Positions 1 to 17,034 of a DNA stretch of 28,965 bases are shown here, piece by piece. The position numbers and the translations under genes were made by a program. The notes beneath the pieces are model-generated. The model was not told the DNA's origin, did not search any database, and was given only the letters and a program-made list of their open reading frames with translations. The DNA is taken from positions 1 through 28,965 of IMG/VR virus record IMGVR_UViG_3300016476_000656. One strand, given 5' to 3'. Source of the DNA: a virus (lineage: Duplodnaviria; Caudoviricetes). Numbering within the stretch: position 1 is the first letter of the stretch; every line of letters starts with the position of its first letter.

Positions 1-1254
1 CTCGGTGCGTGCCCACCTGCGGACGATGACCCAGAAGTGGTCGCCCTGACAGTCGATGGCCAGCGTCACGAACGGAACCGACCCGGGCGGGGCTTCGTCT
101 TTGTCCACGATCTGGCCACGCGGCCCGATGTAGCACATAGCCGACCACTCGTCCTTCATGCCGTAGTCGGATGACTCCGTGCTCACGACGAGCGACCCCT
201 GCTCGTCACTCCATGGCAGGGCGAGGTACTGCTGCTTGAACAGCATACGCGGGGTTATGTCACCGAGCTCGGCGACCTCCTTCGCCTTGATCATATCGAC
301 GGCCAGAGACCCCCAGCTCGTCGAGGCAAGGGCGTTGACGTGCAGTCCGACGTAGCCTGCCTTCTCCGCCTTGGCCGTGGCCACGAACCCGGCCCCGCGC
401 TCGACCTCGTTCGCGATTGTCCGCACCTCGTCGTTGTCCTCCAGCCGCGTCTTGCAGTGGGGGCATTCGTAGGTCGTGCCGTTCTGCACCTGCTCCAAGT
501 CCCAGCCGTCTATGTGCTTCGCGCCGTCAGGAAACCTGATGAAGTCCCACGACCAGGCGCTCGTCTTGGAACACGCCGGGCACGACATCATCCACTCCCG
601 CTGGTCGGTCATCAGATAGAACTTCCAGAACTCCGCACCCTGTCCTTCGATGTTCCCGGGCTGGCTCTCGTAGATCGCCTTAGACGCGAACGCCGCCGCC
701 TTCAGTCGCGACAGGCTCATCGCAATCGCGCCGTTCGGCCACTGCCAGCACTCCGAGCCGAGGACGTATCGGACGTGCAGGGACTGCAGGTGCTTCTCCG
801 TCGAGGCGGAGCGGTTGTGAATCAGCGAGCCGTCCGCGAACCGCAGGGTGCCGGACTTGTCGTTGTCGTCGGCGCTCATCTGCGTGCGGATGTCACCCAC
901 CTGCTCGAACAGCGGGCGCAGCTCATTCAAAGTGAAACCCTTCGCCTTGTCCTGGCTGTCGAGGTAGATGGCCATCGACGCACGGCGGTTCGCCATCAGG
1001 TAAGCCGCGTTGAGTTTCAAGGTAAGCGTCTTCCCGCAGCCGATGGCCCAGGGCATGAACATCCGCGACGTCGTCGATTGGTTGAAGATGCGCACGGCCT
1101 CCGCAATCCACGGCCACCGCTTCGGGTTGTAGCCGCCGTCGAACACGCCGGCCGGAATCTTCTTAACGTTGTGTCGCAGGTAATCGACAGGGTCGGACAT
1201 CGCCGACGGCCTGACGACCGCGAGCATCTCCTTGAACAGTTCTTCGCCGGTCAT
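1..1254 (-). CDS. terL: Terminase large subunit, lambda gpA family (5' part; runs off the window)
   Basis: Hand translation from ATG 1254, which overlaps the terS stop (ATGA), stays open to base 1. Contains Walker A-like MPWAIGCGKT, Walker B-position RYVLGSECW, two CxxC motifs (CPAC, CPHC) and a gpA-type nuclease motif TLAIDCQGDHFWV. Absent from the ORF track because it is truncated. Confidence 0.9.
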   Translation of the reverse strand, partial: MTGEELFKEMLAVVRPSAMSDPVDYLRHNVKKIPAGVFDGGYNPKRWPWIAEAVRIFNQSTTSRMFMPWAIGCGKTLTLKLNAAYLMANRRASMAIYLDSQDKAKGFTLNELRPLFEQVGDIRTQMSADDNDKSGTLRFADGSLIHNRSASTEKHLQSLHVRYVLGSECWQWPNGAIAMSLSRLKAAAFASKAIYESQPGNIEGQGAEFWKFYLMTDQREWMMSCPACSKTSAWSWDFIRFPDGAKHIDGWDLEQVQNGTTYECPHCKTRLEDNDEVRTIANEVERGAGFVATAKAEKAGYVGLHVNALASTSWGSLAVDMIKAKEVAELGDITPRMLFKQQYLALPWSDEQGSLVVSTESSDYGMKDEWSAMCYIGPRGQIVDKDEAPPGSVPFVTLAIDCQGDHFWVIVRRWARTE

Positions 1255-1757
1255 GCTTCGGGTGGGCGGAACATATCCGCCGCGTTGGCGATTTTCTCCC
1301 GGGCCTCGAGCGCCCAAGCCGTCAGGACCGTGATGGCCTTGATGGGGTCCTTCGGGTTCGCGTTCTCGCCGCACTCCGAAGCCAGCGCGTCCAGCCGCTC
1401 GACGATGAGACCCGCGAGCTTGAGCCCGGCCTCACGTGCCTCGGTCGCCTTGATCTGCTCGCGGCTCACAAGCGCTCTACGCTCTCGCTCTTCCTGCAGG
1501 GCGACCAGCGTCTTCAGCGATTGGTTGTACGTGACCTGATACTTCCCGGTCTCGGCGTCGCCTGACCTGAGCAGCAGTTCGTACTTCTCGCGTGCGAGCA
1601 CGACCAGGCGCTGGTGCTTGGCGATCGTCTCCTCGAAGTTCGCGTCGGGGATTCCCTCCACGTCGAGGGATGGCCGCTCCTTTTTGGGTCGCCCCGGCTT
1701 TCGCTTGGAAGGCACCAAATCAAAAACAGGGGTTTTTTGCTCGTTTTCAGAATCCAT
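1251..1757 (-). CDS. Terminase small subunit (probable)
   Basis: Directly upstream of and coupled to terL. Basic KRKPGRPKK N-terminus and helical coiled-coil C-terminus as in Nu1-like proteins. ATG 1757 preferred over GTG 1787. Confidence 0.7.
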   Translation of the reverse strand: MDSENEQKTPVFDLVPSKRKPGRPKKERPSLDVEGIPDANFEETIAKHQRLVVLAREKYELLLRSGDAETGKYQVTYNQSLKTLVALQEERERRALVSREQIKATEAREAGLKLAGLIVERLDALASECGENANPKDPIKAITVLTAWALEAREKIANAADMFRPPEA

Positions 1758-2639: not shown

Positions 2640-5267
2640 CTAGTCGAGGAAGGCCGACCTAGGAATTCGCACCGCTCGATGGACTGAAGCACCGAATCTG
2701 ACCCCGGCGACGTGGGCCGCGCCCGGGACTCTTGCAAACTGATCCTTCCACTTATCCGCCCAGGACGTGTCCATGAACAGGGTGCGCAGGGCCGGGTGGT
2801 GGTTGGAGATCGCGACGGTGTCGTCCTCCAGTCGGATGCCCGAGCGCATGAGGTTCTTGGAGATGGTGTCGGCCTCGTCGGAACGGATTGTGTCCGAGTA
2901 GTAGCCTTGGATGAGCTCGCCGATGGAGCGGGTGTAAGCCTTGCCGTCCTCGGTCTCGAAGCGGACGGACTTGTCGAGCATCCAAGCGAGGGCGCGGACT
3001 TCGTCCTGGTCGGCCTCGTCGGGCATGAAGCCGTGCCAGTTCTGCTTCTCGACCCAAGTGGTGGCTTCCTCCATGGAAAGGACACGCGTCGAGGTCAGGG
3101 AGAAGGCGCCGGACAGGAGAGCGCCGAGTTGGTCGCCGATGCGCTGGTCGCCCAGCTTGACGGCCACGGCCTTGGCGAAGGTCTTGGCGTTGGCGGTGAT
3201 GGACATGGCGTTGGCGAGGGCACGTGCCCGGATGCCTTCGGCGTACTCAGGACGTGCGACGGTCTCGGCCCACAGGGCTTTCAGCTGCTCGAAGCGTTCG
3301 CGGCCGCCGTCGGAGTTGTCCTTACGCAGTTCGAGGGAGGTGATACGGCTCGTGTCAGCACGCTGGTTCGCGGCGACGCCGATGGAGGCGAAGGCGAAGC
3401 ACGAGCGGATCTGATACTCCATGGCCTTGCCGGACGCGGAGCCCTTGCCGATGCCAGCGCCGGTCTCAGCCGAGGCGGCGCGCGCGAGCTCGAGGATGGA
3501 CTGCATCCGCATCTGGCCGCGCTTGTCCTCGGACTCGGCCTCGTCGAAGATGACAGGAAGGGCGTCGGAGCGGAGCCGCTGGCGGATGAACGCCTCGGTG
3601 GTGGCGGACTGCACCAGCAGGGCGAGACGACCGACGAGCGGGTCGAGGATGTTGTTGAGGAGCCAGGTCTTGCCGGATCCAGAAGGTCCGTTGACCCAGA
3701 TGTGCGGACGCCAGCCGAGGACGCCGCAGATGGGAGCGATGACGCACCAGCCAGCGAAGAACTTGGAGAAGATAGGCTCCTTCCAGTTCATCATGTCGGT
3801 GAGGGCGATGAGGCGCGCGGCCTCGGCGTTGGAGATGGGTTCAGCCTGGTCGGCTTCGAGGCGCTGGCCCTGCGTGTAGATCCACTTGGACTGCCACGAG
3901 GGGATGGTGCGCTCTTCGTTGCCGATGAGCAGGCGGTCACCCGCATGGAACAGGACCTGCTCGCCGTCTACCCAGCAACCACGGCCACGGACTCGGCGGG
4001 GCGAGAAGATGCCCTCGCGGTGCGCGGCTTGGATGAGCGCGTTGGCGGCGGCTTTCCAGTCGGCGCCTTCGCGGGATGGGAAGTGGGACTCCCACCAGTT
4101 GGCACCGGCTAGACGAAGGAACGGCAGGTGCTTGTGGTCGTTGGCCGATAGGGCGACGATCTGCTGGGAAGAGTCCGGCAGGTAGAAGTAGACGCCCTCG
4201 TCATGGCCGAGGACGCGGAACGGCCACGGCACGTCGGCCACGGGGTCGGGTTCGCTGGGCAGGGCGGCGTACTCCATGGCCTCGAGCACCTCTGGAGGCG
4301 GAGGGGTTGGCTCGGGCTGGGGCTCAGCGCGGGGCTCGCCACGGATGTGAGCGCGCACCTGGTCAGTGGTCCAGCCCTCGGCTTCGGCGTCGGCGAGGTC
4401 CCAGCCTTCGGCCACGTCGGCGGGAGGGGTGACGATGCGGACGTTGGGCAGTTGCTTGCGGATGAGCTCGATGCACTTGCGCCCGGGCTCGTCGGCATCA
4501 GGCCAGAAGAGCACCTTGCGCTCGGCGAGCGGTGACCAGTCGGCGAGGCTGACGGCCTTGGAGCCGCCCGACCACGTGGTCACGGCGAGGTTCGGCAGCA
4601 GACGCTTGGCGGCGTCGGCGGTCTTCTCGCCCTCGACGATGAGCACCCAGCCTGTGGAGGCCACGACCTCGGGCAGGTTGTAGAGGGGGCGGGGCTTGGC
4701 GAAGGACTTCCAGCGCCAGCCTTCCTTGCCGGACTGATGGCGGCACCACGTGATGGGCAGGACTTCCTTAGAGCCGTCGGCGAGATTAAAGCGGCAGATC
4801 AGGCCGACGCGGTGTCCGTCAGCAGTGTGATAGGTCCACGTGGCGACAGGCTGGCCGTGCTTGTAGTGGTTCAGGTCGGGCTCGTGGCAACCGTTCGGAG
4901 CGTGGGGCAGAGGCTCCCACTCGCTCGCGGCGCTTGGCTTGGACTCGTAGGTGGCGAGAGGAGCGACGGCGGTCAGGTTGCCCAGGGACAGACGCTCGGA
5001 GAGTTCCTTGGCGGCTTCGCCCTGCTTGCACCCACGGATAGCGGCGAGCAGGCTGATGGGGTCGGAGCCCTTGAGGTCACCGGCGAAGTCCGCCCAGCGT
5101 CCGGTGGTCAGGTTGATGGACATGGACGAGCCGGGCTCGCCGTTGATGGAGCCGATGCGGAACTCGTGGCCGTCCTTCTTGCCAGCGGGGAACCACTCCA
5201 TGCAGAGCGATTCAAGGGATGAGAGTGCTGCCGAGTTGACGGCTGCGAAGTCGAGACGAGATGCCAT
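2640..5267 (-). CDS. DNA primase-helicase fusion (TOPRIM domain + P-loop NTPase)
   Basis: TOPRIM motifs VLIVEGEKTADAA and WPDADEPG, Pro/Glu linker, Walker A GPSGSGKT, Walker B VIFDEAE. Start ATG 5267. Confidence 0.88.
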   Translation of the reverse strand: MASRLDFAAVNSAALSSLESLCMEWFPAGKKDGHEFRIGSINGEPGSSMSINLTTGRWADFAGDLKGSDPISLLAAIRGCKQGEAAKELSERLSLGNLTAVAPLATYESKPSAASEWEPLPHAPNGCHEPDLNHYKHGQPVATWTYHTADGHRVGLICRFNLADGSKEVLPITWCRHQSGKEGWRWKSFAKPRPLYNLPEVVASTGWVLIVEGEKTADAAKRLLPNLAVTTWSGGSKAVSLADWSPLAERKVLFWPDADEPGRKCIELIRKQLPNVRIVTPPADVAEGWDLADAEAEGWTTDQVRAHIRGEPRAEPQPEPTPPPPEVLEAMEYAALPSEPDPVADVPWPFRVLGHDEGVYFYLPDSSQQIVALSANDHKHLPFLRLAGANWWESHFPSREGADWKAAANALIQAAHREGIFSPRRVRGRGCWVDGEQVLFHAGDRLLIGNEERTIPSWQSKWIYTQGQRLEADQAEPISNAEAARLIALTDMMNWKEPIFSKFFAGWCVIAPICGVLGWRPHIWVNGPSGSGKTWLLNNILDPLVGRLALLVQSATTEAFIRQRLRSDALPVIFDEAESEDKRGQMRMQSILELARAASAETGAGIGKGSASGKAMEYQIRSCFAFASIGVAANQRADTSRITSLELRKDNSDGGRERFEQLKALWAETVARPEYAEGIRARALANAMSITANAKTFAKAVAVKLGDQRIGDQLGALLSGAFSLTSTRVLSMEEATTWVEKQNWHGFMPDEADQDEVRALAWMLDKSVRFETEDGKAYTRSIGELIQGYYSDTIRSDEADTISKNLMRSGIRLEDDTVAISNHHPALRTLFMDTSWADKWKDQFARVPGAAHVAGVRFGASVHRAVRIPRSAFLD

Positions 5268-5284
5268 AGGGTGCGGGATTGGCA

Positions 5285-5389: not shown

Positions 5390-5734
5390 CTATTCCGCAA
5401 GCAGGAACCTTACGTCCTCGACCGACCGGGCGATGACGGCGATGCCACCGGCCTTGCGGACGTTGTCAGCCCAGACCTGCTGCTCAGGGCGGACGGTTCC
5501 CTTGGGGGTCTTGACCTCCACGGACACGAACTGGGCGATGCGCTGGCCGACCATGTCTGGGGTGATGAGCACGGACCGCCAGCCGATCAGGTCGCCTGAG
5601 CCGGTGATGAGGCCGTAGCGGATGACCCTGCCGTCTGGGGCTTTGTATGCGCCGACGTTGTTGCGGAAGACCTTGATGCCAGGATGAGAGCCGAGGGCTA
5701 GGCGGATGGCCTGCTGGACGCCCTGCTCGCTCAT
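5390..5734 (-). CDS. VRR-NUC domain nuclease
   Basis: SE..VQ..I, FRNNVG, GSGDLIG, EVKTPKG..RPEQ..W motifs of the PD-(D/E)xK VRR-NUC family. Confidence 0.9.
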   Translation of the reverse strand: MSEQGVQQAIRLALGSHPGIKVFRNNVGAYKAPDGRVIRYGLITGSGDLIGWRSVLITPDMVGQRIAQFVSVEVKTPKGTVRPEQQVWADNVRKAGGIAVIARSVEDVRFLLAE

Positions 5735-7104
5735 TTCTTCTGCCGTGCCTTGAACACGTTATGCGCCCAGCCGTAGGGGTTCTTCATGCCTCGGGCTTTG
5801 CCGACGCGGATGAGGTCCTCCAGGGTCTGAGCAGTGCCCTGCTCCCGCTTGCGCTCGCGGATGGCCTGACGCGCCTTGATCTCTTCGAGCTCGCCGTCTA
5901 CCACGTCAGGGATGCGGTCCTTGACCTCGTAGACGTGCAAGCACTGCGGACAGGTCGGGCTCGGGGTGTGCACGGCGAAGCACTGCGGGCACTGGCGGGT
6001 GCTCTGGACGTCGTCCTGCTGGCCACGCTTGCCCCGCTTGCGGATGCCGTCGAGCGACCAGTCGCGGACCTCTTCGGCTAGGCCGTGCCGTCGGCAGTTG
6101 CCCACGTGGTCGAGGATGATGGCGCGGGGCTTGCCCGGGCTGACGCGGAGGACTCTGCCCACCTGCTGGAGGTGTAGGGAGAGGGAGGCCGTCGGCCTCA
6201 GCAGGATGGCGCACGCCACGATCGGCAGGTCGAACCCCTCGGATACGATGTCCACGGTGACGAGGCCGTGCAGCCGCCCCGATCCAAGGCTGGCCACTCG
6301 GGCGGCTCGCTCCTCTGGTGACAGCGTGCCGTCGAGCACGGCGAAGCGGTAGCCTGCCGCGTTGAACGCCTGGCACACGTGCTCGGCGTGCTTGATGCCT
6401 GTGCAGAACACCACGCAGGGCAGGCCGTCGGCGTACTTGCGGTAGTGGATGACAGCGTCGCCGGTGATGGTCGGCTTGTCCATGCGCTCGGCGATGTCGG
6501 CGCGGTTGAAGTCTCCGGCCACGGTGCGCACGCCTGTGAAGTCCACGGTCTTGGGGGCGAAGTACTGCGGCCGGCAGAGGAAGCCCTGCCCGATGAGGTC
6601 GGCCACCTCGGGTCCACGGATCAGGTCGTCGAACACCTGACCGAGGCCCTTGCCGTCGAGGCGCTGCGGAGTCGCGGTGACGCCTAGCACCCGGGCTTGC
6701 GGCCACTTATCCAGGACGGTCGCCCATGCGCCTGCCGTGGCGTGGTGTGCTTCGTCGATGACGATGAGGTCAGGCGGGCGGACGTGGTCGAGCCTGCGGA
6801 TGAGAGTCTGCACGGAGGCGACCTGCGTGAGGTGGGTAGAGTCGGGCGTCTTGCCTGCCGCGATCAGGCCGTGAGGCACTTCGAGCTGAGTGAGGGCGGC
6901 GTGTGTCTGGTTGAGCAGTTCGGCACGGTGGACGAGCACGAGCGTGCGGTTGCCCTTGGCGGCGGCGTTGGCCGTCACGTAGGAGAAGATGACGGTCTTG
7001 CCGGAACCTGTGGGGGCGACCAGGAGCGGACGACGGCGGCCTGCCCGGAAGGCTTCGCGGACGGCGTCCACGGCGGAGGACTGATAGGGACGAAGGGAGA
7101 ACAC
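5731..7104 (-). CDS. Superfamily 2 (DExH) helicase with C-terminal zinc finger
   Basis: LRPYQ, APTGSGKT, DEAHH, TATP, EGFD, QQVGRVLR, CPQC..CPQC. The real start is probably GTG 7104, not 7278. Confidence 0.92.
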   Translation of the reverse strand: MFSLRPYQSSAVDAVREAFRAGRRRPLLVAPTGSGKTVIFSYVTANAAAKGNRTLVLVHRAELLNQTHAALTQLEVPHGLIAAGKTPDSTHLTQVASVQTLIRRLDHVRPPDLIVIDEAHHATAGAWATVLDKWPQARVLGVTATPQRLDGKGLGQVFDDLIRGPEVADLIGQGFLCRPQYFAPKTVDFTGVRTVAGDFNRADIAERMDKPTITGDAVIHYRKYADGLPCVVFCTGIKHAEHVCQAFNAAGYRFAVLDGTLSPEERAARVASLGSGRLHGLVTVDIVSEGFDLPIVACAILLRPTASLSLHLQQVGRVLRVSPGKPRAIILDHVGNCRRHGLAEEVRDWSLDGIRKRGKRGQQDDVQSTRQCPQCFAVHTPSPTCPQCLHVYEVKDRIPDVVDGELEEIKARQAIRERKREQGTAQTLEDLIRVGKARGMKNPYGWAHNVFKARQKK

Positions 7105-7120
7105 GTGCGGGAATGGGGGT

Positions 7121-7194
7121 AGAATGGTGGGTATAACTGGCGGGGGCAAATTGTAAACATTCAGGATGGACGCGAGGGGTGGGCAGTGTAGTTT
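7121..7194. promoter_or_regulatory. Divergent early promoter pair
   Basis: Minus strand: TTGCCC-17-CATTCT (7149-7121). Plus strand: TGGACG-16-TAGTTT (7167-7194). Lies between divergent operons. Confidence 0.5.
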
Positions 7195-7213
7195 GTTCTC
7201 CTCCCGCACAACC

Positions 7214-7408
7214 ATGAGCACCCAATACATCAAGCCCTCCGCGATCCGCAAAGCCGTCAAGGCTGGCGGCAAGCGCACGTCCTCCGAGTTCCTCGACGCC
7301 CTCGACCGCTACGTCGAGCGCGCCATCGCTCGGGCCATCGCCGAGCACAACGGCGGCAAGAAGACCATCGACGCCTCCGTCGCCGGTCACGTCCTCGGCA
7401 ACCGCTAA
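7214..7408 (+). CDS. Small histone-fold protein (bacterial/phage alpha3-truncated type)
   Basis: 64 aa. IKPSAIRKAVK (alpha1), KRTSSEF (L1), LDALDRYVERAIARAIAE (alpha2), GGKKTI (L2). Matches the pattern of Bdellovibrio Bd0055/HBb-type histones. Confidence 0.72.
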   Translation: MSTQYIKPSAIRKAVKAGGKRTSSEFLDALDRYVERAIARAIAEHNGGKKTIDASVAGHVLGNR

Positions 7409-7412
7409 GACC

Positions 7413-7514
7413 ATGAGCCTCATCAAACTACTGCTCCTCGCGGCCCTCATCGCCACGGTCATCGTCTTCTTCGCCGAAGGCCCTGACCTGCTCACCATCA
7501 TCGACCAGTACTGA
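7413..7514 (+). CDS. 33-aa single-transmembrane protein
   Basis: MSLIKLLLLAALIATVIVFFAEGPDLLTIIDQY. Fills the gap between neighbouring genes and has typical C-ending codons. Confidence 0.7.
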   Translation: MSLIKLLLLAALIATVIVFFAEGPDLLTIIDQY

Positions 7515-7526
7515 TTCTCCCGCACC

Positions 7527-7829
7527 ATGAACCACAAACCTGTCAGCATCACCGATCCTGTCCGCCTCCAGGCGGCCAAGGACATCCTCATCGAACACCG
7601 CGCCAAGGCCAAGGTCAGCGCCTCCTACGAGCTCTACGGCTTCCTGTTCAACGGCAAGACCGTCATCGACCGCATCGACCACGCGCCGACCTCCGGGGAC
7701 TTCGCTCCTCTGATCGGCAAAAAGCGCATCGCCTCGCTGTTCACGGCCTACGACATGGTGGTCGAGTTCCGCAGCGCCTGGAAGACCGACGAGCAGGCCA
7801 AGGTCGTGGCTTGGGAGGCGGCTCAGTAA
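7527..7829 (+). CDS. Hypothetical protein
   Basis: Strong codon bias, operon position, preceded by TCCCGCAC. Confidence 0.8.
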   Translation: MNHKPVSITDPVRLQAAKDILIEHRAKAKVSASYELYGFLFNGKTVIDRIDHAPTSGDFAPLIGKKRIASLFTAYDMVVEFRSAWKTDEQAKVVAWEAAQ

Positions 7830-7863
7830 GGCCATGCCTGACCCCCTCTCCCATCATCCCGCC

Positions 7864-8211
7864 ATGCTCATCGTCAAATCCAACTCCATGCCCCGCCTCT
7901 GGTGGCTCGTCCCCTGGAGCTACGCCCGACAACTCTACCGCAACTGCGTGGCGCTGAAAGCCCTCTGCGACCGACAGGATGATACCATCCGCCTGCAGGC
8001 CAAGACCATCACCGACCTTAAGAAGAACTCGGAATACGAGCGCGTCTACAAGGACGTGGTCGAGACCCTCAAGAACCCGGAACTCGACAGGGGCAAGCCG
8101 ATTGCCCTCTTCAAGGGCGAGGCTTACCTCTACGACCCAGAGGCCAAGCACTTCGCCTACGAGACCGACGCGGCCAAGGCCATCGAACGAGTAAACGAAC
8201 TTAACCGATGA
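7864..8211 (+). CDS. Hypothetical protein (WWLxPW motif + coiled coil)
   Basis: ATG 7864 is preceded by ATCCCGCC; alternative start 7834. Stop overlaps the next ATG. Confidence 0.75.
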   Translation: MLIVKSNSMPRLWWLVPWSYARQLYRNCVALKALCDRQDDTIRLQAKTITDLKKNSEYERVYKDVVETLKNPELDRGKPIALFKGEAYLYDPEAKHFAYETDAAKAIERVNELNR

Positions 8212-8417
8212 CCCTCACCCCATACCAGATCGCCACGCGGCACTTGGCCACTGAGGTTGAATACATCAACAGACTCCTGCATACGCGGGACCTGTCGAAG
8301 GCCAAGGCCAAGCTGATGCTTGCCGACGCCGTTACCGCCGCCGCGAAGGCCGCAGGCGAGACGTTCACCATCAAGTTCGGCATCAACCAGGGGAGGGCTT
8401 GGTTCAGCGTCCTATGA
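8208..8417 (+). CDS. Hypothetical protein
   Basis: ATGA overlaps at both ends. Confidence 0.7.
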   Translation: MTLTPYQIATRHLATEVEYINRLLHTRDLSKAKAKLMLADAVTAAAKAAGETFTIKFGINQGRAWFSVL

Positions 8418-8653
8418 GCGACATCAACCCCAACCGAATGATTCCCCTGCACGTCGCCGACGCCGCCGTCGCGGCTTGCGACAAGGAGATCGCGCAACTG
8501 CGAGCCGAGGTCCAGCGCCTGCGCCACCGGGCGGAAGCCCTCCGCGAGGCCGGGGACGAACTCTGGTTTTGCCTGCGTCACGGCAAGCGACTCACGCACG
8601 CCGAGGTGCAGGAAGCCGTGGAGGACTGGCAGGACGCCAGGGGAGACCGATGA
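8414..8653 (+). CDS. Hypothetical coiled-coil protein
   Basis: ATGA overlaps at both ends; heptad EIAQLRAEVQRL. Confidence 0.7.
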   Translation: MSDINPNRMIPLHVADAAVAACDKEIAQLRAEVQRLRHRAEALREAGDELWFCLRHGKRLTHAEVQEAVEDWQDARGDR

Positions 8654-8853
8654 GCGAGAACCTCGAAGCCGAGAACGCCCGCCTCAAGGCAGAGGTCGAG
8701 CGGCTGACGAATTGTAAGTCTGAAGCCGACCGATTGAAGGCCGAGGTCGAGCGTCTCAAGCAGGAAAAGAACGAATTGGCGGTGATGATTCATCCCGTTG
8801 CGTTGAAAGCATGGATGAACTTGAACGCCGCCAAGGAGGGCAAGCATCCGTGA
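8650..8853 (+). CDS. Hypothetical coiled-coil protein
   Basis: ATGA-coupled; LKAEVERL occurs twice. Confidence 0.7.
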   Translation: MSENLEAENARLKAEVERLTNCKSEADRLKAEVERLKQEKNELAVMIHPVALKAWMNLNAAKEGKHP

Positions 8854-8999
8854 GCCAGAAGCGTCGCCCCGAGCGCATGAAGCCCGGCCTGAAGCAACTC
8901 ACCCCTGCCGAGCGCAAGGTCTACGAGGAACGTCTCGCGGATCATAAAAAGCGCTGGGAGAACCTCTTCGCCCTCAACCGCTGGAAGCCGTCTAAATGA
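8850..8999 (+). CDS. Small basic hypothetical protein
   Basis: GTGA and ATGA overlaps with its neighbours. Confidence 0.6.
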   Translation: MSQKRRPERMKPGLKQLTPAERKVYEERLADHKKRWENLFALNRWKPSK

Positions 9000-9343
9000 C
9001 CACCCCCTACAATCCCCGCACGCCCATCAACGAGCTGCACGACATGATCGACAAGCACGTACCGCAGGCCGAGGCTAAGTTGCAGGCGTTCTACGACAAG
9101 GCCCACGAGACCAGGGCTCTGCTTAAGCGTCTCGGTTGCTGGCCTGCCCCTCGCCCTACTCCACAGCCGCCCAGGCGCAAGGAGACCGGGCGGGGCATGA
9201 TGTCCACGATCGCGAAGATGGCCTACGAGTGGGCGCTCGCGAACGGCAAGACGACCAACGAGGCCGCCGAGGAGTTCCGCTGCACTCCCGACTCCATCCA
9301 CTCCTACCGCCAATACCGCAAACTACCCAAACTGAAACGATGA
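8996..9343 (+). CDS. Hypothetical protein with C-terminal HTH-like motif
   Basis: TTNEAAEEFRCTPDSIHSYR; ATGA-coupled. Confidence 0.65.
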   Translation: MTTPYNPRTPINELHDMIDKHVPQAEAKLQAFYDKAHETRALLKRLGCWPAPRPTPQPPRRKETGRGMMSTIAKMAYEWALANGKTTNEAAEEFRCTPDSIHSYRQYRKLPKLKR

Positions 9344-9768
9344 AAAGACAGACATACAACAAGGACGGAACGGTCGCCAGTTGGACTGATACGACCACCA
9401 CCTACTACCCTCACTGGACGATGGATACCATCCCAGAGGACGCCGCCGTGCCCGAGGCCGTCAACCGCGTGACCGTCGATAACACCGACCTGCCCGGCTC
9501 CGACTGCGAGCGCGACATCAAGCCCCTGCCGTTCTTCTGGTGGCTCAACCCCTGGAAGCACCTCGAGCTGGTGTTCGATGCTTACAGGGACACGACCGAA
9601 GTCTGCAACGCTTGGCGCAGGGCTTACCACCTGCAGTCCGCAGAGGCAGAGCGTCAGCGCCAGCAGGTCTACGACCTGAAGAACGAACTCGACACCATGC
9701 GATCCGAACGCGACGCCGCCAACGATGCCGTCCGCACCCTCCGCAAGAAAGGCAAACGCCGTGGCTGA
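9340..9768 (+). CDS. Hypothetical protein (WWLxPW motif + coiled coil)
   Basis: ATG 9340 overlaps the previous stop; FFWWLNPW followed by heptads. Confidence 0.75.
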   Translation: MKRQTYNKDGTVASWTDTTTTYYPHWTMDTIPEDAAVPEAVNRVTVDNTDLPGSDCERDIKPLPFFWWLNPWKHLELVFDAYRDTTEVCNAWRRAYHLQSAEAERQRQQVYDLKNELDTMRSERDAANDAVRTLRKKGKRRG

Positions 9769-10012
9769 GCTCGAACTCACCGTGCGCCACAAGGGCACCG
9801 AGTACATCGTCCTGCTGGACGTGACCTGGGAGAAGGTGGACGACTCCTTCGACCATGCCTTCGGCACCGAGCACCGCTCCCACTGGGAGGCCGAGGACTA
9901 CGACGTCCAGTCGGTCATCGACGAGGACGGCGACGAGCTCGACGCCGACGAGGTGCCAGGGCTTCACCGATCCATCCGCGACGCCCTCAACGACTATGAC
10001 TACCAACCGTAA
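9761..10012 (+). CDS. Acidic hypothetical protein
   Basis: GTG 9761 overlaps the previous gene; very D/E-rich. Confidence 0.7.
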   Translation: MAELELTVRHKGTEYIVLLDVTWEKVDDSFDHAFGTEHRSHWEAEDYDVQSVIDEDGDELDADEVPGLHRSIRDALNDYDYQP

Positions 10013-10331
10013 GCGCGCCCCCTACGGCGCCGTGAAGGACGCCTGCGCTCAGGCCGACGGCACTGGGGTCACCGCGATGGAGGTCGCCAAGGCCACCGGC
10101 TTCCCGGTCCACTCCATCCGATCCTGCTGCCGAGACTACGGCTTCAGCCTCCGGGCTGTCCGCCGTCCGCAGGGGTCGGTCAAGGAACTGGTGCAGGCCG
10201 CCATAAGCCAGGGGATGACCATCCCGCAGCTGGCCGAGACCTCTGGGATTAACCCCCACACGCTGTACTCCGTCCGCCGCCGCCTCGGCCTAGGGGTCTG
10301 CCTGCCCCGCCAAGCCTCCCTACGCCCATGA
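9996..10331 (+). CDS. Tandem HTH DNA-binding protein
   Basis: Two repeats: TAMEVAKATGFPVHSIRS and TIPQLAETSGINPHTLYS. Confidence 0.7.
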   Translation: MTTNRKRAPYGAVKDACAQADGTGVTAMEVAKATGFPVHSIRSCCRDYGFSLRAVRRPQGSVKELVQAAISQGMTIPQLAETSGINPHTLYSVRRRLGLGVCLPRQASLRP

Positions 10332-10801
10332 CCCTACTCCTTACCCTCACCGCCGGGCTTCTCGCCTCTGAGGCCGTCCCAGAGCCTCTGGTGCAGGCCG
10401 TCGAGCACGTGGAATCCTCCGGCCGTGGGGCGGCTACCCCTGACGGGGACGGCGGCCTAGCCCGTGGCCCCCTGCAGTGGCACTCCGTGGCATGGAAGGA
10501 CTGCTCCGCCGTGCGCCGTAAGGCAGGGCTGGCGGTCTGGCCGTACTCCTCGGCGTCCGACCCTGCCCGGGCAAGGGACTACGCTCGCACCTGGCTGACC
10601 GTCCTCAAGGTCAGGCTCGCCGGGCAGATCGGCAGGCAACCCTTCCCGGGTGAGATATGGCTGGCGTGGAACCTCGGCTGGACGGGCTTCTCGCGGTATG
10701 GCTTCCAGTGGGCGGAGGTGCCTGCGGCCAAGTTCGCGAAGGCAAGGCAGGTGAACACGCTGGCTTGGGGCTTGCCAAAGCGTAAGCCGTCCGCACGTTA
10801 G
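10328..10801 (+). CDS. Lysozyme-superfamily muramidase/transglycosylase with signal peptide
   Basis: Hydrophobic N-terminus, catalytic-type AVEHVESSG, GDGGLARGPLQ and AWNLG motifs. Confidence 0.7.
   Translation: MTLLLTLTAGLLASEAVPEPLVQAVEHVESSGRGAATPDGDGGLARGPLQWHSVAWKDCSAVRRKAGLAVWPYSSASDPARARDYARTWLTVLKVRLAGQIGRQPFPGEIWLAWNLGWTGFSRYGFQWAEVPAAKFAKARQVNTLAWGLPKRKPSAR
10772..10799 (+). promoter_or_regulatory. Putative promoter of the small RNA
   Basis: TTGCCA-16-CACGTT, the same style as the other predicted promoters. Puts +1 at about 10805-10807. Confidence 0.4.
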
Positions 10802-10806
10802 GAGAC

Positions 10807-10884
10807 GAGCCCGGCAAATAACTTGTGCGGGATCGCAAGGGGGCGTCGGGCTCAGGCCACTCGAAAGGGTGGCCTTCTTGTTTA
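10807..10884 (+). ncRNA. Predicted structured antisense small RNA
   Basis: 9-bp closing stem (10807-10815 / 10845-10853), inner hairpin CTTGTG-CGGGAT-CGCAAG, then a terminator. Carries TTGTGCGGGAT, the complement of the early-gene leader box. Confidence 0.6.
10854..10884 (+). terminator. Intrinsic terminator between convergent operons
   Basis: AGGCCACTC-GAAA-GGGTGGCCT followed by TCTTGTTT. Confidence 0.8.
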
Positions 10885-11319
10885 TCGACGGAACCGGCTT
10901 CGCTGGTAGTGGCGGCGGGGCATCGGCACGTTGAACACCTTGAAGGGGATGTCGTCGGCCGTGGCCTGATACTGCAAAGCCCGGGTGGTCATGCCCATGT
11001 CCTTGGCGATGACCGACAGAGGAGCCCAGCCTGCGGGAACCTTCTCCGCCCTGGCTACCTTCTGGGCTTCATGCGCCTGCTTCCAAGTCTTGAACTTGGG
11101 CGACAGGCGAAAGACGACCTTGCCATATTTGATGACTTTACGCTCGGCGAACCCGGCGGCCACCAGCCTGTCGGCGATGTCGCGAGCTCCGCCCATCGTC
11201 GTGTATCCGAGGAGGGGCAACAGTTCCCTGGTATGGAGCCAGCCTTCGTCAAGCTCTGCGGTGCTGGTCAGGGCTGGCTTGTCGGTGACGATGGCCTTGA
11301 GGAAGTCTTGGACGCGCAT
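10882..11319 (-). CDS. Basic putative DNA-binding protein (two HTH/winged-helix-like repeats)
   Basis: ATG 11319 overlaps the upstream stop (TGATG). GWLHTRELLPLLG and GWAPLSVIAKDMGMTTRAL repeats. Confidence 0.6.
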   Translation of the reverse strand: MRVQDFLKAIVTDKPALTSTAELDEGWLHTRELLPLLGYTTMGGARDIADRLVAAGFAERKVIKYGKVVFRLSPKFKTWKQAHEAQKVARAEKVPAGWAPLSVIAKDMGMTTRALQYQATADDIPFKVFNVPMPRRHYQRSRFRR

Positions 11320-12092
11320 CAGATCAGGTCGTAGGCGGTCGAGCAGATGAACTTGCCCTGGAAGCGATGGGCCGTCCAGACCTTGCAGTCGCCGGTGTTC
11401 TCGTCGATGACCCCATGAAGCCAGCCGTTGCACCACTTAGTGGTGGCTAGGCGCCTCAGCGCATAGTCGGCTTTGCTGATGTCCATCAGGCACATCCCCG
11501 ATACGCCGACGATGCTGGCCTCCAGGTGCTCGATGGTGCAGAGGGCGAAGTCGTGGGTGTGCCCATGGATGACCACGTCTCCAGGCCGGCCGAGGGTGCG
11601 TGCCGTCTCGCGGGTGGCGTTGATGCCAGCCCTGAAGCCGTGGCACCCTGTCAGCTTGCCTACGCGGAAGCGGTTGACGTCCGCCTCGGTCTTGCCCTTC
11701 ACGCTGTACCGATGGATCTCCCTGCAGCCGACGGACTCCAAGGCGTCGGCATATGACCGGACGGCGCGCTCGGCGTTCTCACGGCGGTCACCGTTGCGCG
11801 AGAGCATCTGCTCCTCGGCGCGGATGTCATGGTTGCCCTGCAGGTAGATGGTGGGCTTTAGGATTTTCTTGATGAAATAGTTTCCGGCCTTGAGGTCATC
11901 GGCTATGCCTTCCTCTTGGTCTTCTGGAGAAGCCCCACGGCGCCATGCTCCGAAGTCGAAGCAGTCACCTAGGTGGATGCGGAGGGTGGGATTCCACTTG
12001 CCGATGAATGCGCCGAGCGCGTCCTGCGTCTCTTCGCAGACATGGTGGCCGTGGTTGTCTCCGGCGGCGACCCAGCGGATGATATTGCTCAT
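11319..12092 (-). CDS. Calcineurin-like metallophosphoesterase
   Basis: GDNHG, LGDCFD, GNHD, CHG and HGHTH motifs. Start ATG 12092. Confidence 0.88.
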   Translation of the reverse strand: MSNIIRWVAAGDNHGHHVCEETQDALGAFIGKWNPTLRIHLGDCFDFGAWRRGASPEDQEEGIADDLKAGNYFIKKILKPTIYLQGNHDIRAEEQMLSRNGDRRENAERAVRSYADALESVGCREIHRYSVKGKTEADVNRFRVGKLTGCHGFRAGINATRETARTLGRPGDVVIHGHTHDFALCTIEHLEASIVGVSGMCLMDISKADYALRRLATTKWCNGWLHGVIDENTGDCKVWTAHRFQGKFICSTAYDLI

Positions 12093-13842: not shown

Positions 13843-14631
13843 TTAGGAATTGAACTTGGAGAGGTCGATTTCGATGACGCCCGGGCCGGTCTTCTTAGGC
13901 CAAGCCTTTGGGTCGGTTCCGAACTGATCGCGGTAGGATTTCAGCAGGTCGAGCGCCTTGCGGTAGCGACGACGCCCGGTCTCGATGTCGGCCTCGGTCA
14001 TCACGAACACCTGGACGAAAATCTCTGGGGCGTCCTTGCCCTCGATGGCGATGAAGGCGAAGCCACGGGGACGGCGCTTGGTCACGGCCTCGATGCCGTC
14101 GATGTAGAGCGCGGCCTGTCGGTCATAGCCGAAGTCCCAGACCGAGCGGCGGAAGGCGTAGTGCTCGACGCTGGGGGTGGTCTTCACGTCCACGAGCAGG
14201 CCGTCGTCGCGGTAGCGGTCAGGTCGGCAGCGCATCTGGATGCCGGTGGCCTCGTCCGTCCAGAAGTAGGAGGATTCGTTGACGCCTTCGCCTGAGAGCA
14301 GGGCGTTGGCTTCCTCGTCTTCCTGCACGGCGGTGGCGATGTTCGAGAGTTGGACGAACTCATCGTGGCTCACGATCTCCTTGCCTTCGTTGGCCAGCAG
14401 GAACTCCTCTTCGCGAGCCTTGGCGCCCTTGCCCTTGTCGAGACCCTCGGGCATGACGGCCCAGGTGTCGGCGATGAGCTGAGGCTCGAGGATGATGGTA
14501 TGGACGAGAGAACCCCAGCGGAGGGAAGGGGTCTTCTTGCGGGGCGTGTTCATCAGGCGCGGGGACTCGAGGAAGCGGGAGAGTTTCGAGTTCGAGACCG
14601 CCGGGCTGGCGTGGTATTCTGCGTTGTTCAT
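13843..14631 (-). CDS. RecE/exonuclease VIII-like PD-(D/E)xK exonuclease (DUF3799 type)
   Basis: N..YH, GSLVHTIILEP, RCRPD, DVKTT, YDRQAALY; adjacent to recT. Confidence 0.88.
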   Translation of the reverse strand: MNNAEYHASPAVSNSKLSRFLESPRLMNTPRKKTPSLRWGSLVHTIILEPQLIADTWAVMPEGLDKGKGAKAREEEFLLANEGKEIVSHDEFVQLSNIATAVQEDEEANALLSGEGVNESSYFWTDEATGIQMRCRPDRYRDDGLLVDVKTTPSVEHYAFRRSVWDFGYDRQAALYIDGIEAVTKRRPRGFAFIAIEGKDAPEIFVQVFVMTEADIETGRRRYRKALDLLKSYRDQFGTDPKAWPKKTGPGVIEIDLSKFNS

Positions 14632-14646
14632 GTGCGGGTGGGAAAA

Positions 14647-15531
14647 TCACTTGTCGCCCCGGATGCGGGGGTGGCGGAAGGAGCCTTCGGGCGTCATGTT
14701 CTGGAAGGACACTTCCAGCCAGGAGCCGATGACGGTGTCGCGGTTCTCCCAGATCTCGCGGCGCTGTTCGTCGGTGAAGCCGCCGCCGACTCGGACGAGG
14801 CGCGAGCCGTGCTCGACGACCACGTGGCCCATGGTTCCGGCGAGACGGCCTTTGCCCTCATGGACGGAGACGATGGCGCACTCTTCGGAGTCGACGGCCT
14901 TGACCTTGAGCCAGGCGTTGGAACGCTTGCCCTGCGTGTATGGGGAGGACGTGTCCTTGATCATGGCGCCCTCGAAGCCCTGCGAGACGAAGCGGCGGAA
15001 GGCGTCGTTAGGGGAGAGGTTGTAGAACGAGGGGACGAGGGTGACCTCGGACGGCAGGACGAACTTGGCCATCAGTTCGCGACGAGCGGCGTAGGTGCCG
15101 ACGTCGTCGGGCAGGTCGAGCAGCCAGAGGCGAGCGGAGTCGTCACGATGCTGGGAGCGGATGGCGCCCACGCCGTCGAAGAAGTCGGTGCCGGACACGG
15201 CCTCGCAGTCGAAGGTGAACACGCCGTGCAGGGTGGCCAGAGCGGAGAACACGCCCTCGAAGTGCTGGATGGCAGGGAGCGGGTTGCCGTTGCGGGTCTT
15301 GAACGAGACGGCCAGCGTCTCGCGGCAGACCTCGACGATCACGCGCACGCCGTCAATCTTCGGCTCGCAGGCGAAGGACTCGGGGAGGACGCCCTTGTAG
15401 GGCTTGGCCAGCATGGCCGGGGAGAGGGGAGCCTTGGCTTCGCGGCGAGCGCCCACCTTGAAGCGGGGCTCGGACTCGATCATGTTGAAGATCTGGGCGT
15501 AGAGTTCGGACAGGGGGTCAGGCGAGGTCAT
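14647..15531 (-). CDS. Minimal ATP-dependent DNA ligase
   Basis: Motif I EPKIDGVR, III FDCEA, IV EGAMIK, V WLKVK, OB domain VGGGFTD, and VI RHPRIRGDK. Confidence 0.93.
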   Translation of the reverse strand: MTSPDPLSELYAQIFNMIESEPRFKVGARREAKAPLSPAMLAKPYKGVLPESFACEPKIDGVRVIVEVCRETLAVSFKTRNGNPLPAIQHFEGVFSALATLHGVFTFDCEAVSGTDFFDGVGAIRSQHRDDSARLWLLDLPDDVGTYAARRELMAKFVLPSEVTLVPSFYNLSPNDAFRRFVSQGFEGAMIKDTSSPYTQGKRSNAWLKVKAVDSEECAIVSVHEGKGRLAGTMGHVVVEHGSRLVRVGGGFTDEQRREIWENRDTVIGSWLEVSFQNMTPEGSFRHPRIRGDK

Positions 15532-16285: not shown

Positions 16286-17034
16286 TCCTGGGGAGCCTTC
16301 GGTTTGCGGATGAAGCGCCACGACTTGACGGCCACGACGGCGGCGAGGTTAAGGGCGAGGAAACCGAGCGTGCCGAAGAGCACCCACTCGGACTTGTCCC
16401 CGCCGAAGAAGTCGATGAGGGGTCTGGCGGTCGCCGCGACGAGGACGCCTGCTCCGATCGTGAGGCCAGCCACCCACTTCTGGATGCCAAGCAGGTGACC
16501 GAAGAGCAGGGCTACGACGCCGAGGGCGATGGCGTAGGAGCCGTATTCGGTGAGGGTCTGAGCGGACTGCGTGAGGCTGGCCTGCTTGTCGGCCTCGGCC
16601 TTGTCCCTGCGTGCTTGCTCGGCTTCGGCCTGAGCCTTGATGCGTGCGAGCTTCTCGGCCTCGACCTTCTTCTCAAGCTCGTCGGTCTTCTTGTCGAGGG
16701 CGACCTTCTCCGCCCGGATGGCCGCGAGCATCTTCTCGTCAGGCTTGGCCACCAGTGCGCGGAAGTGCTCGACCGACTTGGCCGTGGGTTCACCTGAAAG
16801 GGAGGCCAGCCCCTGCGTCGCGGAGTCGTAGAGGTTAAGCGCCGAGGCGGGACCGGACAGCGAGGGGCGGATGGCCGTGTAAATGGAAAGGTTCTCCGCC
16901 ACCTCGTCCTGCCACACTTTGAGGAGCGTGGTCTGCTGGGCAGGGGCAGGCGGAGGAACCTGCGGAAGCGGAGCCGGAGCCTTGGGCGTGGAGCACCCAG
17001 CCATCAGCAGGCAGATGACCAGGAGCAGGCGCAT
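16282..17034 (-). CDS. Lipoprotein with coiled coil and C-terminal TM helices (spanin-like)
   Basis: Lipobox LMAG-C, Pro-rich linker, heptad stretch and three hydrophobic C-terminal segments; next to the holin. Confidence 0.6.
   Translation of the reverse strand: MRLLLVICLLMAGCSTPKAPAPLPQVPPPAPAQQTTLLKVWQDEVAENLSIYTAIRPSLSGPASALNLYDSATQGLASLSGEPTAKSVEHFRALVAKPDEKMLAAIRAEKVALDKKTDELEKKVEAEKLARIKAQAEAEQARRDKAEADKQASLTQSAQTLTEYGSYAIALGVVALLFGHLLGIQKWVAGLTIGAGVLVAATARPLIDFFGGDKSEWVLFGTLGFLALNLAAVVAVKSWRFIRKPKAPQE

Follow-up and report, generated by a model that had tools for sequence, protein, structure and literature searches.

Small structured phage RNAs that pair with ribosome-binding or leader sequences are exemplified by c4 of phages P1 and P7 and by CI of phage P4. 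Both are cut out of the operon under their control and have one or two target sites there, as do the known phage antisense RNAs that block ribosome binding, and the C4 family is included in Rfam. Among host RNAs, the small RNAs (sRNAs) CpxQ and SroC are derived from 3' untranslated regions (3'-UTRs) and share the terminator of an mRNA; their ends have been mapped and their chaperone dependence is known. In the present analysis, a candidate RNA element was studied at positions 10807-10884 of a virus sequence of 28,965 bases (IMG/VR record IMGVR_UViG_3300016476_000656, classed as a fragment), which was analyzed over its whole length and is referred to as the window. The element sits in the 80-nt gap (10802-10881) between two convergent genes, 10328..10801 on the plus strand and 10882..11436 on the minus strand, and carries the complement of CCCGCAC, a box that stands beside the start codons of six genes of the window.

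Short asymmetric boxes have been described in other phages. According to excerpts of the published account, the L5-type repressor, a two-domain protein, binds more than 20 asymmetric 13-mers in short intergenic spaces, with an orientation tied to transcription, and these 13-bp DNA sites are known as stoperators (PMC9283540). In Cluster K mycobacteriophages, the start-associated sequence (SAS) is given in the excerpted text as a 13-bp asymmetric box that precedes the starts of non-structural genes by 3-7 bp, one reverse copy being reported in K1 phages (Pope et al. 2011; PMC3203893), and passages of two later papers called its function unknown in 2024 and 2025 (PMC11373665, PMC12699233).

Like c4 and CI, the window element is predicted to form a small, folded phage RNA that exposes sequence complementary to leaders. 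It differs from them in that the genes with a box number at least six and are scattered on both strands, and an immunity role is unsupported for it. The kinship with P1 C4 that an earlier reading of the DNA (the sequence-only reading) had brought to mind was not borne out at the sequence level for C4 or any other family, as Rfam gave no match on the element at E values up to 10 and none in the window at the gathering score. As in CpxQ and SroC, the seed hairpin lies directly upstream of the terminator of a protein gene that has no strong separate promoter for the RNA, whereas those two are host RNAs with mapped ends and the window element is a predicted phage RNA. With the stoperators, as far as the excerpts describe them, the window box shares many asymmetric copies that are oriented with transcription and lie in short intergenic spaces, but its core spans 7-8 nt, the copies are within 4 nt of starts, and the odd copy lies in a strand-specific RNA hairpin.

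With a probability of roughly 0.5, the element acts as a trans-acting antisense RNA, derived from a 3'-UTR or weakly self-promoted, that would mask the translation starts carrying the box. A discrete RNA of about 78 nt would be released by cleavage from the 3' end of the 10328..10801 mRNA, or begun at a weak TTGCCA-16-CACGTT motif. Pairing would start at the free loop CGGGAU and extend into the 5' strand of the inner stem, the duplex beside the start codon would block initiation, and the resulting repression would shut down or time the replication and recombination genes while the plus-strand block is transcribed. If this is true, one RNA addresses at least six tagged genes on both strands, as against one or two sites in its own operon, and a post-transcriptional regulon is made from a tag of 7-11 nt in a host that apparently does not use Shine-Dalgarno pairing.

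A Structured RNA Predicted in the Convergent Gap

The anatomy that the sequence-only reading had described for the gap, namely TTGCCA-16-CACGTT, a 9-bp stem, the loop CGGGAU and a terminator with a GAAA loop, was reproduced as described by reading the sequence and by RNAfold (Table 1). The hairpin lies directly 5' of the terminator, which is shared with gene 10328..10801. A terminator scan also reported this terminator, in which a U-rich tail follows a GC-rich stem-loop; the tail, quoted successively as TCTTGTTTA, UCUUGUUUA and TCTTGTTTAT, overlaps the stop codon of the minus-strand gene 10882..11436, and the minus strand of the terminator region is without a U-run. The minimum free energy was -45.9 kcal/mol for the plus strand versus -36.8 kcal/mol for the minus strand.

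In IMG/VR, gene 10328..10801 has 19 relatives at 76-86% amino-acid identity, and a profile search with it added one close and 17 distant relatives (37-59% identity). A metagenome scan added 44 close and 8 distant loci, the two groups being separated by a gap in identity (74-86% versus at most 53%); some of the metagenome contigs duplicate IMG/VR records. The element was found directly after the gene in every close relative, though the opposing minus-strand gene differs. When a covariance model was built from ten close relatives, it matched 23/23 and 44/44 loci of the clade and 0/15 and 0/8 loci of the outgroup.

The same nested hairpin and terminator were obtained in each of 16 distinct relatives folded singly. 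In two alignments that were fitted to the covariance model, and are thus biased towards its structure, 99.3 and 99.6% of the cells were paired, 5 and 6 pairs were changed on both sides, and 0/500 shuffles were as good; when the partners were slid by one column, pairing fell to about 50%. The outer helix and the terminator stem vary through G-U pairs and compensatory changes, for example GU:9, GC:6 and AU:2 across the distinct sequences at one pair of the outer helix, and GC:13 with AU:4, or UG with CG, in the terminator stem. Since the G-U pairs of the plus strand are A-C mismatches on the minus strand, which folds worse, the structure is assigned to the plus-strand RNA. These predictions and pair changes support a plus-strand RNA that is conserved and structured and that ends in a terminator.

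Within this structure, no full-length row among the 67 instances (35 distinct) departs from the stretch TTGTGCGGGATC. The sole change in the inner hairpin was a G to A at the position of 10835, on the opposite strand of the stem, which turns a U-G pair into U-A (L237/L241). Pairing of CUGCCC in helicase leaders with the 3' internal loop (GAGGGCAG) was considered as a second contact and not accepted, because CUGCCC occurs in some genomes while others that have the same RNA are without it. In one relative (L041, identical to L022), the 3' internal loop reads GAGGTGCTG rather than the GAGGGCAG of the others, and the helicase leader reads CCTGCACC rather than CCTGCCCC. These paired changes could reflect a co-varying second contact, yet CUGCCC is missing in genomes with the common RNA.

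Placement of the CCCGCAC Box

Eight copies of CCCGCAC occur in the window, and six of them end 0-4 nt before a start codon in the sense orientation. These belong to the genes of the primase-helicase, helicase, ligase and RecE-like protein and to ORFs 7214 and 7527. The remaining two are a sense copy inside ORF 8996 (at 9015) and the antisense copy in the 10802-10881 gap, and none was found in the structural module at 15.6-28 kb. Each copy points in the direction of its local operon or, in the case of the gap copy, of the adjoining minus-strand operon. In its longer form the box reads (A)TCCCGCAC(AA), and it has no purine-rich core. Leaders without a box (RecT, dNMP kinase, gene 10328) are short, pyrimidine-rich and variable.

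The copy number itself is not enriched, with 8 copies against 9.1 +/- 3.4 in shuffles. In 21 related genomes, 168 copies were counted, of which 90 are start-adjacent, 21 lie in the gap (one per genome) and 57 are elsewhere. With 54% of its copies start-adjacent, CCCGCAC ranks first among 42 7-mers of the same composition (median 6.7%), and one antisense copy per genome was present in 21/21 genomes. The placement of CCCGCAC is non-random, while its count alone is unremarkable. Along the element, the profile of complements to start-adjacent sequences peaks at 10825-10826. When the element was shuffled with its dinucleotides preserved, GTGCGGG appeared in 386/20000 shuffles and GTGCGGGA in 46/20000.

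The leader complementarities listed by the sequence-only reading were found again (11 nt for the ligase, 10 for ORF 7214, 9 for the primase-helicase, 9 including a G-U for the helicase and 8 for ORF 7527), the figure of 8 for the RecE-like gene being 7-8. Its statement that all boxes stand in sense beside a start codon holds for six leaders; the seventh proposed start, at 7864, is ambiguous because ATG 7834 opens that ORF. Likewise, the gap holds the single antisense CCCGCAC, as had been proposed, and the further sense copy at 9015 has to be added to the count.

In some leaders, the box takes up the short space that separates the preceding stop codon from the ATG. The box of the RecE-like gene lies 8 nt after the ligase stop codon, and that of ORF 7527 begins 4 nt past the stop codon of a 33-aa ORF (7413..7514). 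This arrangement favours a role in the mRNA and makes a promoter part unlikely. Among orthologues, the exact box was retained in nearly every leader (Table 1), and the two deviating primase-helicase leaders have CCCGCAT, a C to U change that would retain a G-U pair with the seed. The sole variant of the box and the sole variant of the inner stem (U-G to U-A) would both preserve RNA pairing. The sequences just upstream of the boxes vary widely, and the upstream genes change among the relatives.

At the gene starts of the outgroup loci, no CCCGCAC was found. The loci of the clade have both the box and the element and the outgroup loci have neither, so that relatives with the leader box and without the element, which would have told against an RNA, were not encountered; this joint presence and absence is nevertheless a single evolutionary event. 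Sister elements with a changed seed were sought in two scans. The scan with a 14-mer of the core gave 119 loci, of which 16 were real instances, all of the same clade, and the rest chance matches, and the scan with a 20-mer of the terminator gave 26 loci, 7 of them unrelated terminators, with no variant seed. In the outgroup phages, de novo searching for a different start box was too noisy, and a listing of their leaders showed only C/A-rich, G-poor sequences.

Two further observations concern the surroundings of the box. In many relatives (L027-L045 and L209-L251), though not in the window, CCCGCAC also occurs downstream of the RecT start codon, 14-20 nt from its first base (ATGAGCAACACACCCGCACTC), which is still within reach of the initiating ribosome. 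In the divergent region 7112-7213 and its homologues, TAnnnT (TAGTTT, TAGCGT, TAACCT) often stands exactly 8 nt upstream of CCCGCAC. The genes concerned are the first of the divergent blocks (helicase and ORF 7214, or their positional equivalents), so that transcription of these first genes may start at the box or immediately upstream of it.

Pairing Energies, Promoter and Transcript

The seed is complementary to the initiation regions of six candidate targets over 7-11 nt, as expected of a base-pairing sRNA. The seed-box duplexes were calculated at -16.1 to -18.2 kcal/mol, with a cost of +8.1 kcal/mol for opening the seed and of 0.3 kcal/mol for opening the loop CGGGAU. In a region that is coding, most of 45 distinct relatives share the geometry TTGCCA-16-CA(C/A)(G/A)(G/T)T-7-stem. 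The 3' end of gene 10328..10801 is highly conserved, but its synonymous conservation, examined as a sign of a promoter, did not exceed that of other parts of the gene.

Several results weigh against a trans-acting RNA. Half of the seed is paired within the inner stem. For the leaders of the ligase and the primase-helicase, cofolding of the whole molecules gave a free-energy difference (ddG) near 0, with controls equal or better, and in a window-wide duplex scan the ligase leader was tied 6th, behind GC-rich sites unlinked to starts; the ranking of targets by these two methods did not separate the box leaders from controls. A scan with the sigma-70 consensus found no promoter within 7000-11500, and the proposed promoter has a weak -10 part, which falls within the least conserved stretch and overlaps the stop codon of gene 10328..10801. 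RNA runs gave only assembled contigs of relatives, from libraries that may contain DNA (matches in 6 runs at shares of at most 0.23; the 4 examined were contigs of 85-99% relatives, without read ends). The gap copy is oriented with the adjoining minus-strand operon, as a transcription-oriented DNA site would be. Co-variation of seed and box cannot be counted since both are invariant in the relatives found, and their co-occurrence amounts to one phylogenetic event.

Of the proposal of a trans-acting RNA, the conserved plus-strand RNA with its terminator and the invariant core equal to the complement of the box have therefore stood, whereas the promoter, present as TTGCCA-16-CACGTT, is a weak candidate.

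Alternative Explanations

An unlikely alternative is that the box is an asymmetric, stoperator-like DNA site for a phage protein, for example the helix-turn-helix (HTH) protein 9855..10331, the gap copy being a further site and the hairpins only the terminator region. The gene of this protein is just upstream, at two genes' distance from the element, and its match to Pfam HTH_23 (E 1.1e-5) contradicts the earlier remark that no protein repressor is obvious in the window; nothing supports the idea of an RNA that takes the place of a protein repressor. The sense copies and the gap copy are all co-oriented with local transcription, for which excerpts on the L5-type repressor sites provide a precedent (PMC9283540). 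Against such a site, the leaders conserve only 7-8 nt compared with the 13 bp of stoperators, the gap has 12 invariant nucleotides in a hairpin that, to judge from its G-U pairs, would function on the plus strand only, and both of the single variants seen retain RNA pairing.

It is quite improbable, and rated below a DNA site, that the box acts at the RNA level as a start signal, recognized by the ribosome or by some protein of the host or phage and replacing a Shine-Dalgarno sequence in a host that makes no use of one, and that the gap element is a double-hairpin terminator or a 3'-end stabilizer whose complementarity arose by chance. The box does occupy the Shine-Dalgarno position in genes that, as in distant relatives, lack this motif and have C/A-rich, G-poor leaders. 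Its copy number is at chance level, the energy scans did not single out the targets, and the plus-strand operon needs a terminator anyway. However, a coincidence of about 0.002-0.02 would be required, falling exactly on the 12 invariant nucleotides; a plain stabilizing hairpin needs no invariant sequence amid a drifting outer helix; and the Cluster K phages described below repeat the layout with an unrelated box.

Very improbable is a gap copy that serves as the leader of a real minus-strand gene, or as a minus-strand promoter for a transcript antisense to gene 10328..10801, since the GTG or TTG found 2 nt after the box on the minus strand in 19/21 genomes is a GTT in the window and in L010, the ORFs that follow (10 to 133 codons) shift frame among relatives and are antisense to a protein-conserved gene, and TAnnnT is missing 8 nt upstream, unlike in the first-gene leaders of the divergent region. 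The minus-strand ORF after the gap copy was accordingly rejected, its frames being neither conserved nor in register.

A Similar Layout in Cluster K Mycobacteriophages

The box of the window resembles SAS, as the excerpts describe it, in being a short asymmetric, clade-specific box in one orientation, placed a few nucleotides before the start codons of a subset of non-structural genes and at times overlapping the stop codon of the upstream gene. Both systems have a single copy in the opposite orientation away from gene starts, which is present in 21/21 genomes of the window clade and also in Anaya. The two boxes are unrelated in sequence and the hosts differ; in the excerpted description, SAS is a 13-bp sequence, GGGATAGGAGCCC, with a Shine-Dalgarno core, whereas the window box is 7-11 nt long, C-rich and without such a core.

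In Anaya (JF704106), the reverse SAS is located at 59870-59882 of the record (L261:34871-34883), within a non-coding gap of 385 bp that is flanked by gp96 and gp97. The anti-SAS CCUCCUAUCC, as read on the plus strand, forms the apical loop (CCTCCTATCCC) of a predicted nested hairpin, and the 175-nt region around it folds at z = -4.4. The surrounding stretch of 71 nt is shared by 122 Mycobacterium phage records, with identities of 80-100%; in the record of Adephagia, the hairpin is at about 58,654-58,713. Among eight aligned Cluster K phages (Anaya and seven relatives, L262-L268), the loop is invariant, and the differences in the stems pass through G-U pairs and include one compensatory pair (GC:5 with AU:3). 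Judged by this folding and alignment, the anti-SAS hairpin of Cluster K has the same layout as the window element, with an unrelated box.

It is tentatively suggested that a start-associated box together with an anti-box RNA is a general control device of phages with more than one origin. The tag at the translation starts, specific to a clade, would be read by one hairpin RNA that gates the replication and recombination module post-transcriptionally, and the same device might also explain SAS. A full-text literature search found no proposal of an anti-SAS RNA, the ZoeJ paper lying outside that search. Because Cluster K phages grow on a laboratory strain (Mycobacterium smegmatis mc2 155), RNA-seq of them (Adephagia and ZoeJ) has been published and the architecture recurs, the role of SAS is directly testable.

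Genome Context

The names of the minus-strand genes are based on Pfam and PHROGs matches (Table 1).

Table 1. Coordinates of the gap element, the start-associated boxes and the neighbouring genes in the window.
Feature	Position	Strand	Details	Exact CCCGCAC in orthologous leaders
Promoter-like TTGCCA, 16-nt spacer, CACGTT	10772-10777, 10794-10799	plus	weak candidate; overlaps last codons and stop codon of gene 10328..10801	
Nested hairpin	10807..10853	plus	predicted by RNAfold	
Outer 9-bp helix	10807-10815/10845-10853	plus	followed by internal loops	
Inner 6-bp stem	10822-10827/10834-10839	plus	apical loop CGGGAU, 10828-10833	
Candidate seed, invariant stretch TTGTGCGGGATC	10823..10834	plus	complement of the start-associated box	
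Leader-complementary stretch UUGUGCGGGAU	10823-10833	plus		
Intrinsic terminator	10854..10884	plus	9-bp stem 10854-10862/10867-10875, GAAA loop, U-rich tail	
Ligase leader box ATCCCGCACAA	15534..15544	minus	ATG 15531; 11/11 complementary to UUGUGCGGGAU	34/34
ORF 7214 leader box CTCCCGCACAA	7201..7211	plus	2 nt before ATG 7214; 10 nt complementary	5/5
Primase-helicase box ATCCCGCAC	5271..5279	minus	3 nt before ATG 5267; 9 nt complementary	19/21; other two CCCGCAT
Helicase box TCCCGCAC	7105..7112	minus	abuts GTG 7104; 8 nt and one G-U	26/26
ORF 7527 box TCCCGCAC	7518..7525	plus	1 nt before ATG 7527; 8 nt complementary	23/23
RecE-like box CCCGCAC	14632..14638	minus	abuts ATG 14631; 7-8 nt complementary	36/36
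Weak box ATCCCGC	7856..7862	plus	1 nt before internal ATG 7864 of ORF 7834..8211; 7 nt; doubtful target	
Terminase large subunit	1..1374	minus	left end of window; Pfam/PHROGs	
Primase-helicase	2640..5267	minus	Pfam/PHROGs	
VRR-NUC nuclease		minus	Pfam/PHROGs	
Helicase	5731..7104	minus	Pfam/PHROGs	
RecE-like PDDEXK gene	13843..14631	minus	Pfam/PHROGs	
Ligase	14647..15531	minus	Pfam/PHROGs	
RecT; dNMP kinase; metallophosphatase		minus	Pfam/PHROGs	
Long unnamed block	15.6-27.5 kb	minus	probably structural	
Block of small genes	7214 to 10801	plus	first gene is ORF 7214	
HTH protein	9855..10331	plus	Pfam HTH_23, E 1.1e-5	
157-aa protein	10328..10801	plus	hydrophobic N-terminus; last gene of plus-strand block	

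The protein encoded by gene 10328..10801 had no Pfam or PHROG match. Its VESSGRG...GxLQWH stretch is invariant and resembles the active site of a lytic transglycosylase. The 64-aa product of 7214-7408 on the plus strand (MSTQYIKPSAIRKAVKAGGKRTSSEFLDALDRYVERAIARAIAEHNGGKKT...) looks by eye like a histone fold, but the label "histone-like" given to ORF 7214 by the sequence-only reading found no backing in Pfam or PHROG, where no match was obtained even at E 5.

Shine-Dalgarno motifs are missing from the genes of the window and of the distant relatives (L046-L063), and the leaders of both are C/A-rich and G-poor, as in ...ccacccaccaacacc ATG of the distant relatives. The missing motifs and the composition of the leaders suggest a host with Shine-Dalgarno-independent initiation. 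A host search with gene 10328..10801 and the primase-helicase found no relatives in 185,579 species genomes, and no DNA similar to the window was found among GenBank phages. ARAGORN called a tRNA-Phe of 92 nt at 8057-8148 on the minus strand, inside ORF 7834..8211; the call is probably false because Rfam finds no tRNA at the gathering score. Moreover, a recurrent stop-start junction, TAAGCC ATG (with the variants TAAGGCC ATG and TAAGCGC ATG), was observed between genes of the 15.6-27.5 kb block, at 17034, 20271, 22950 and 25284 on the minus strand, and also before gene 7834 on the plus strand.

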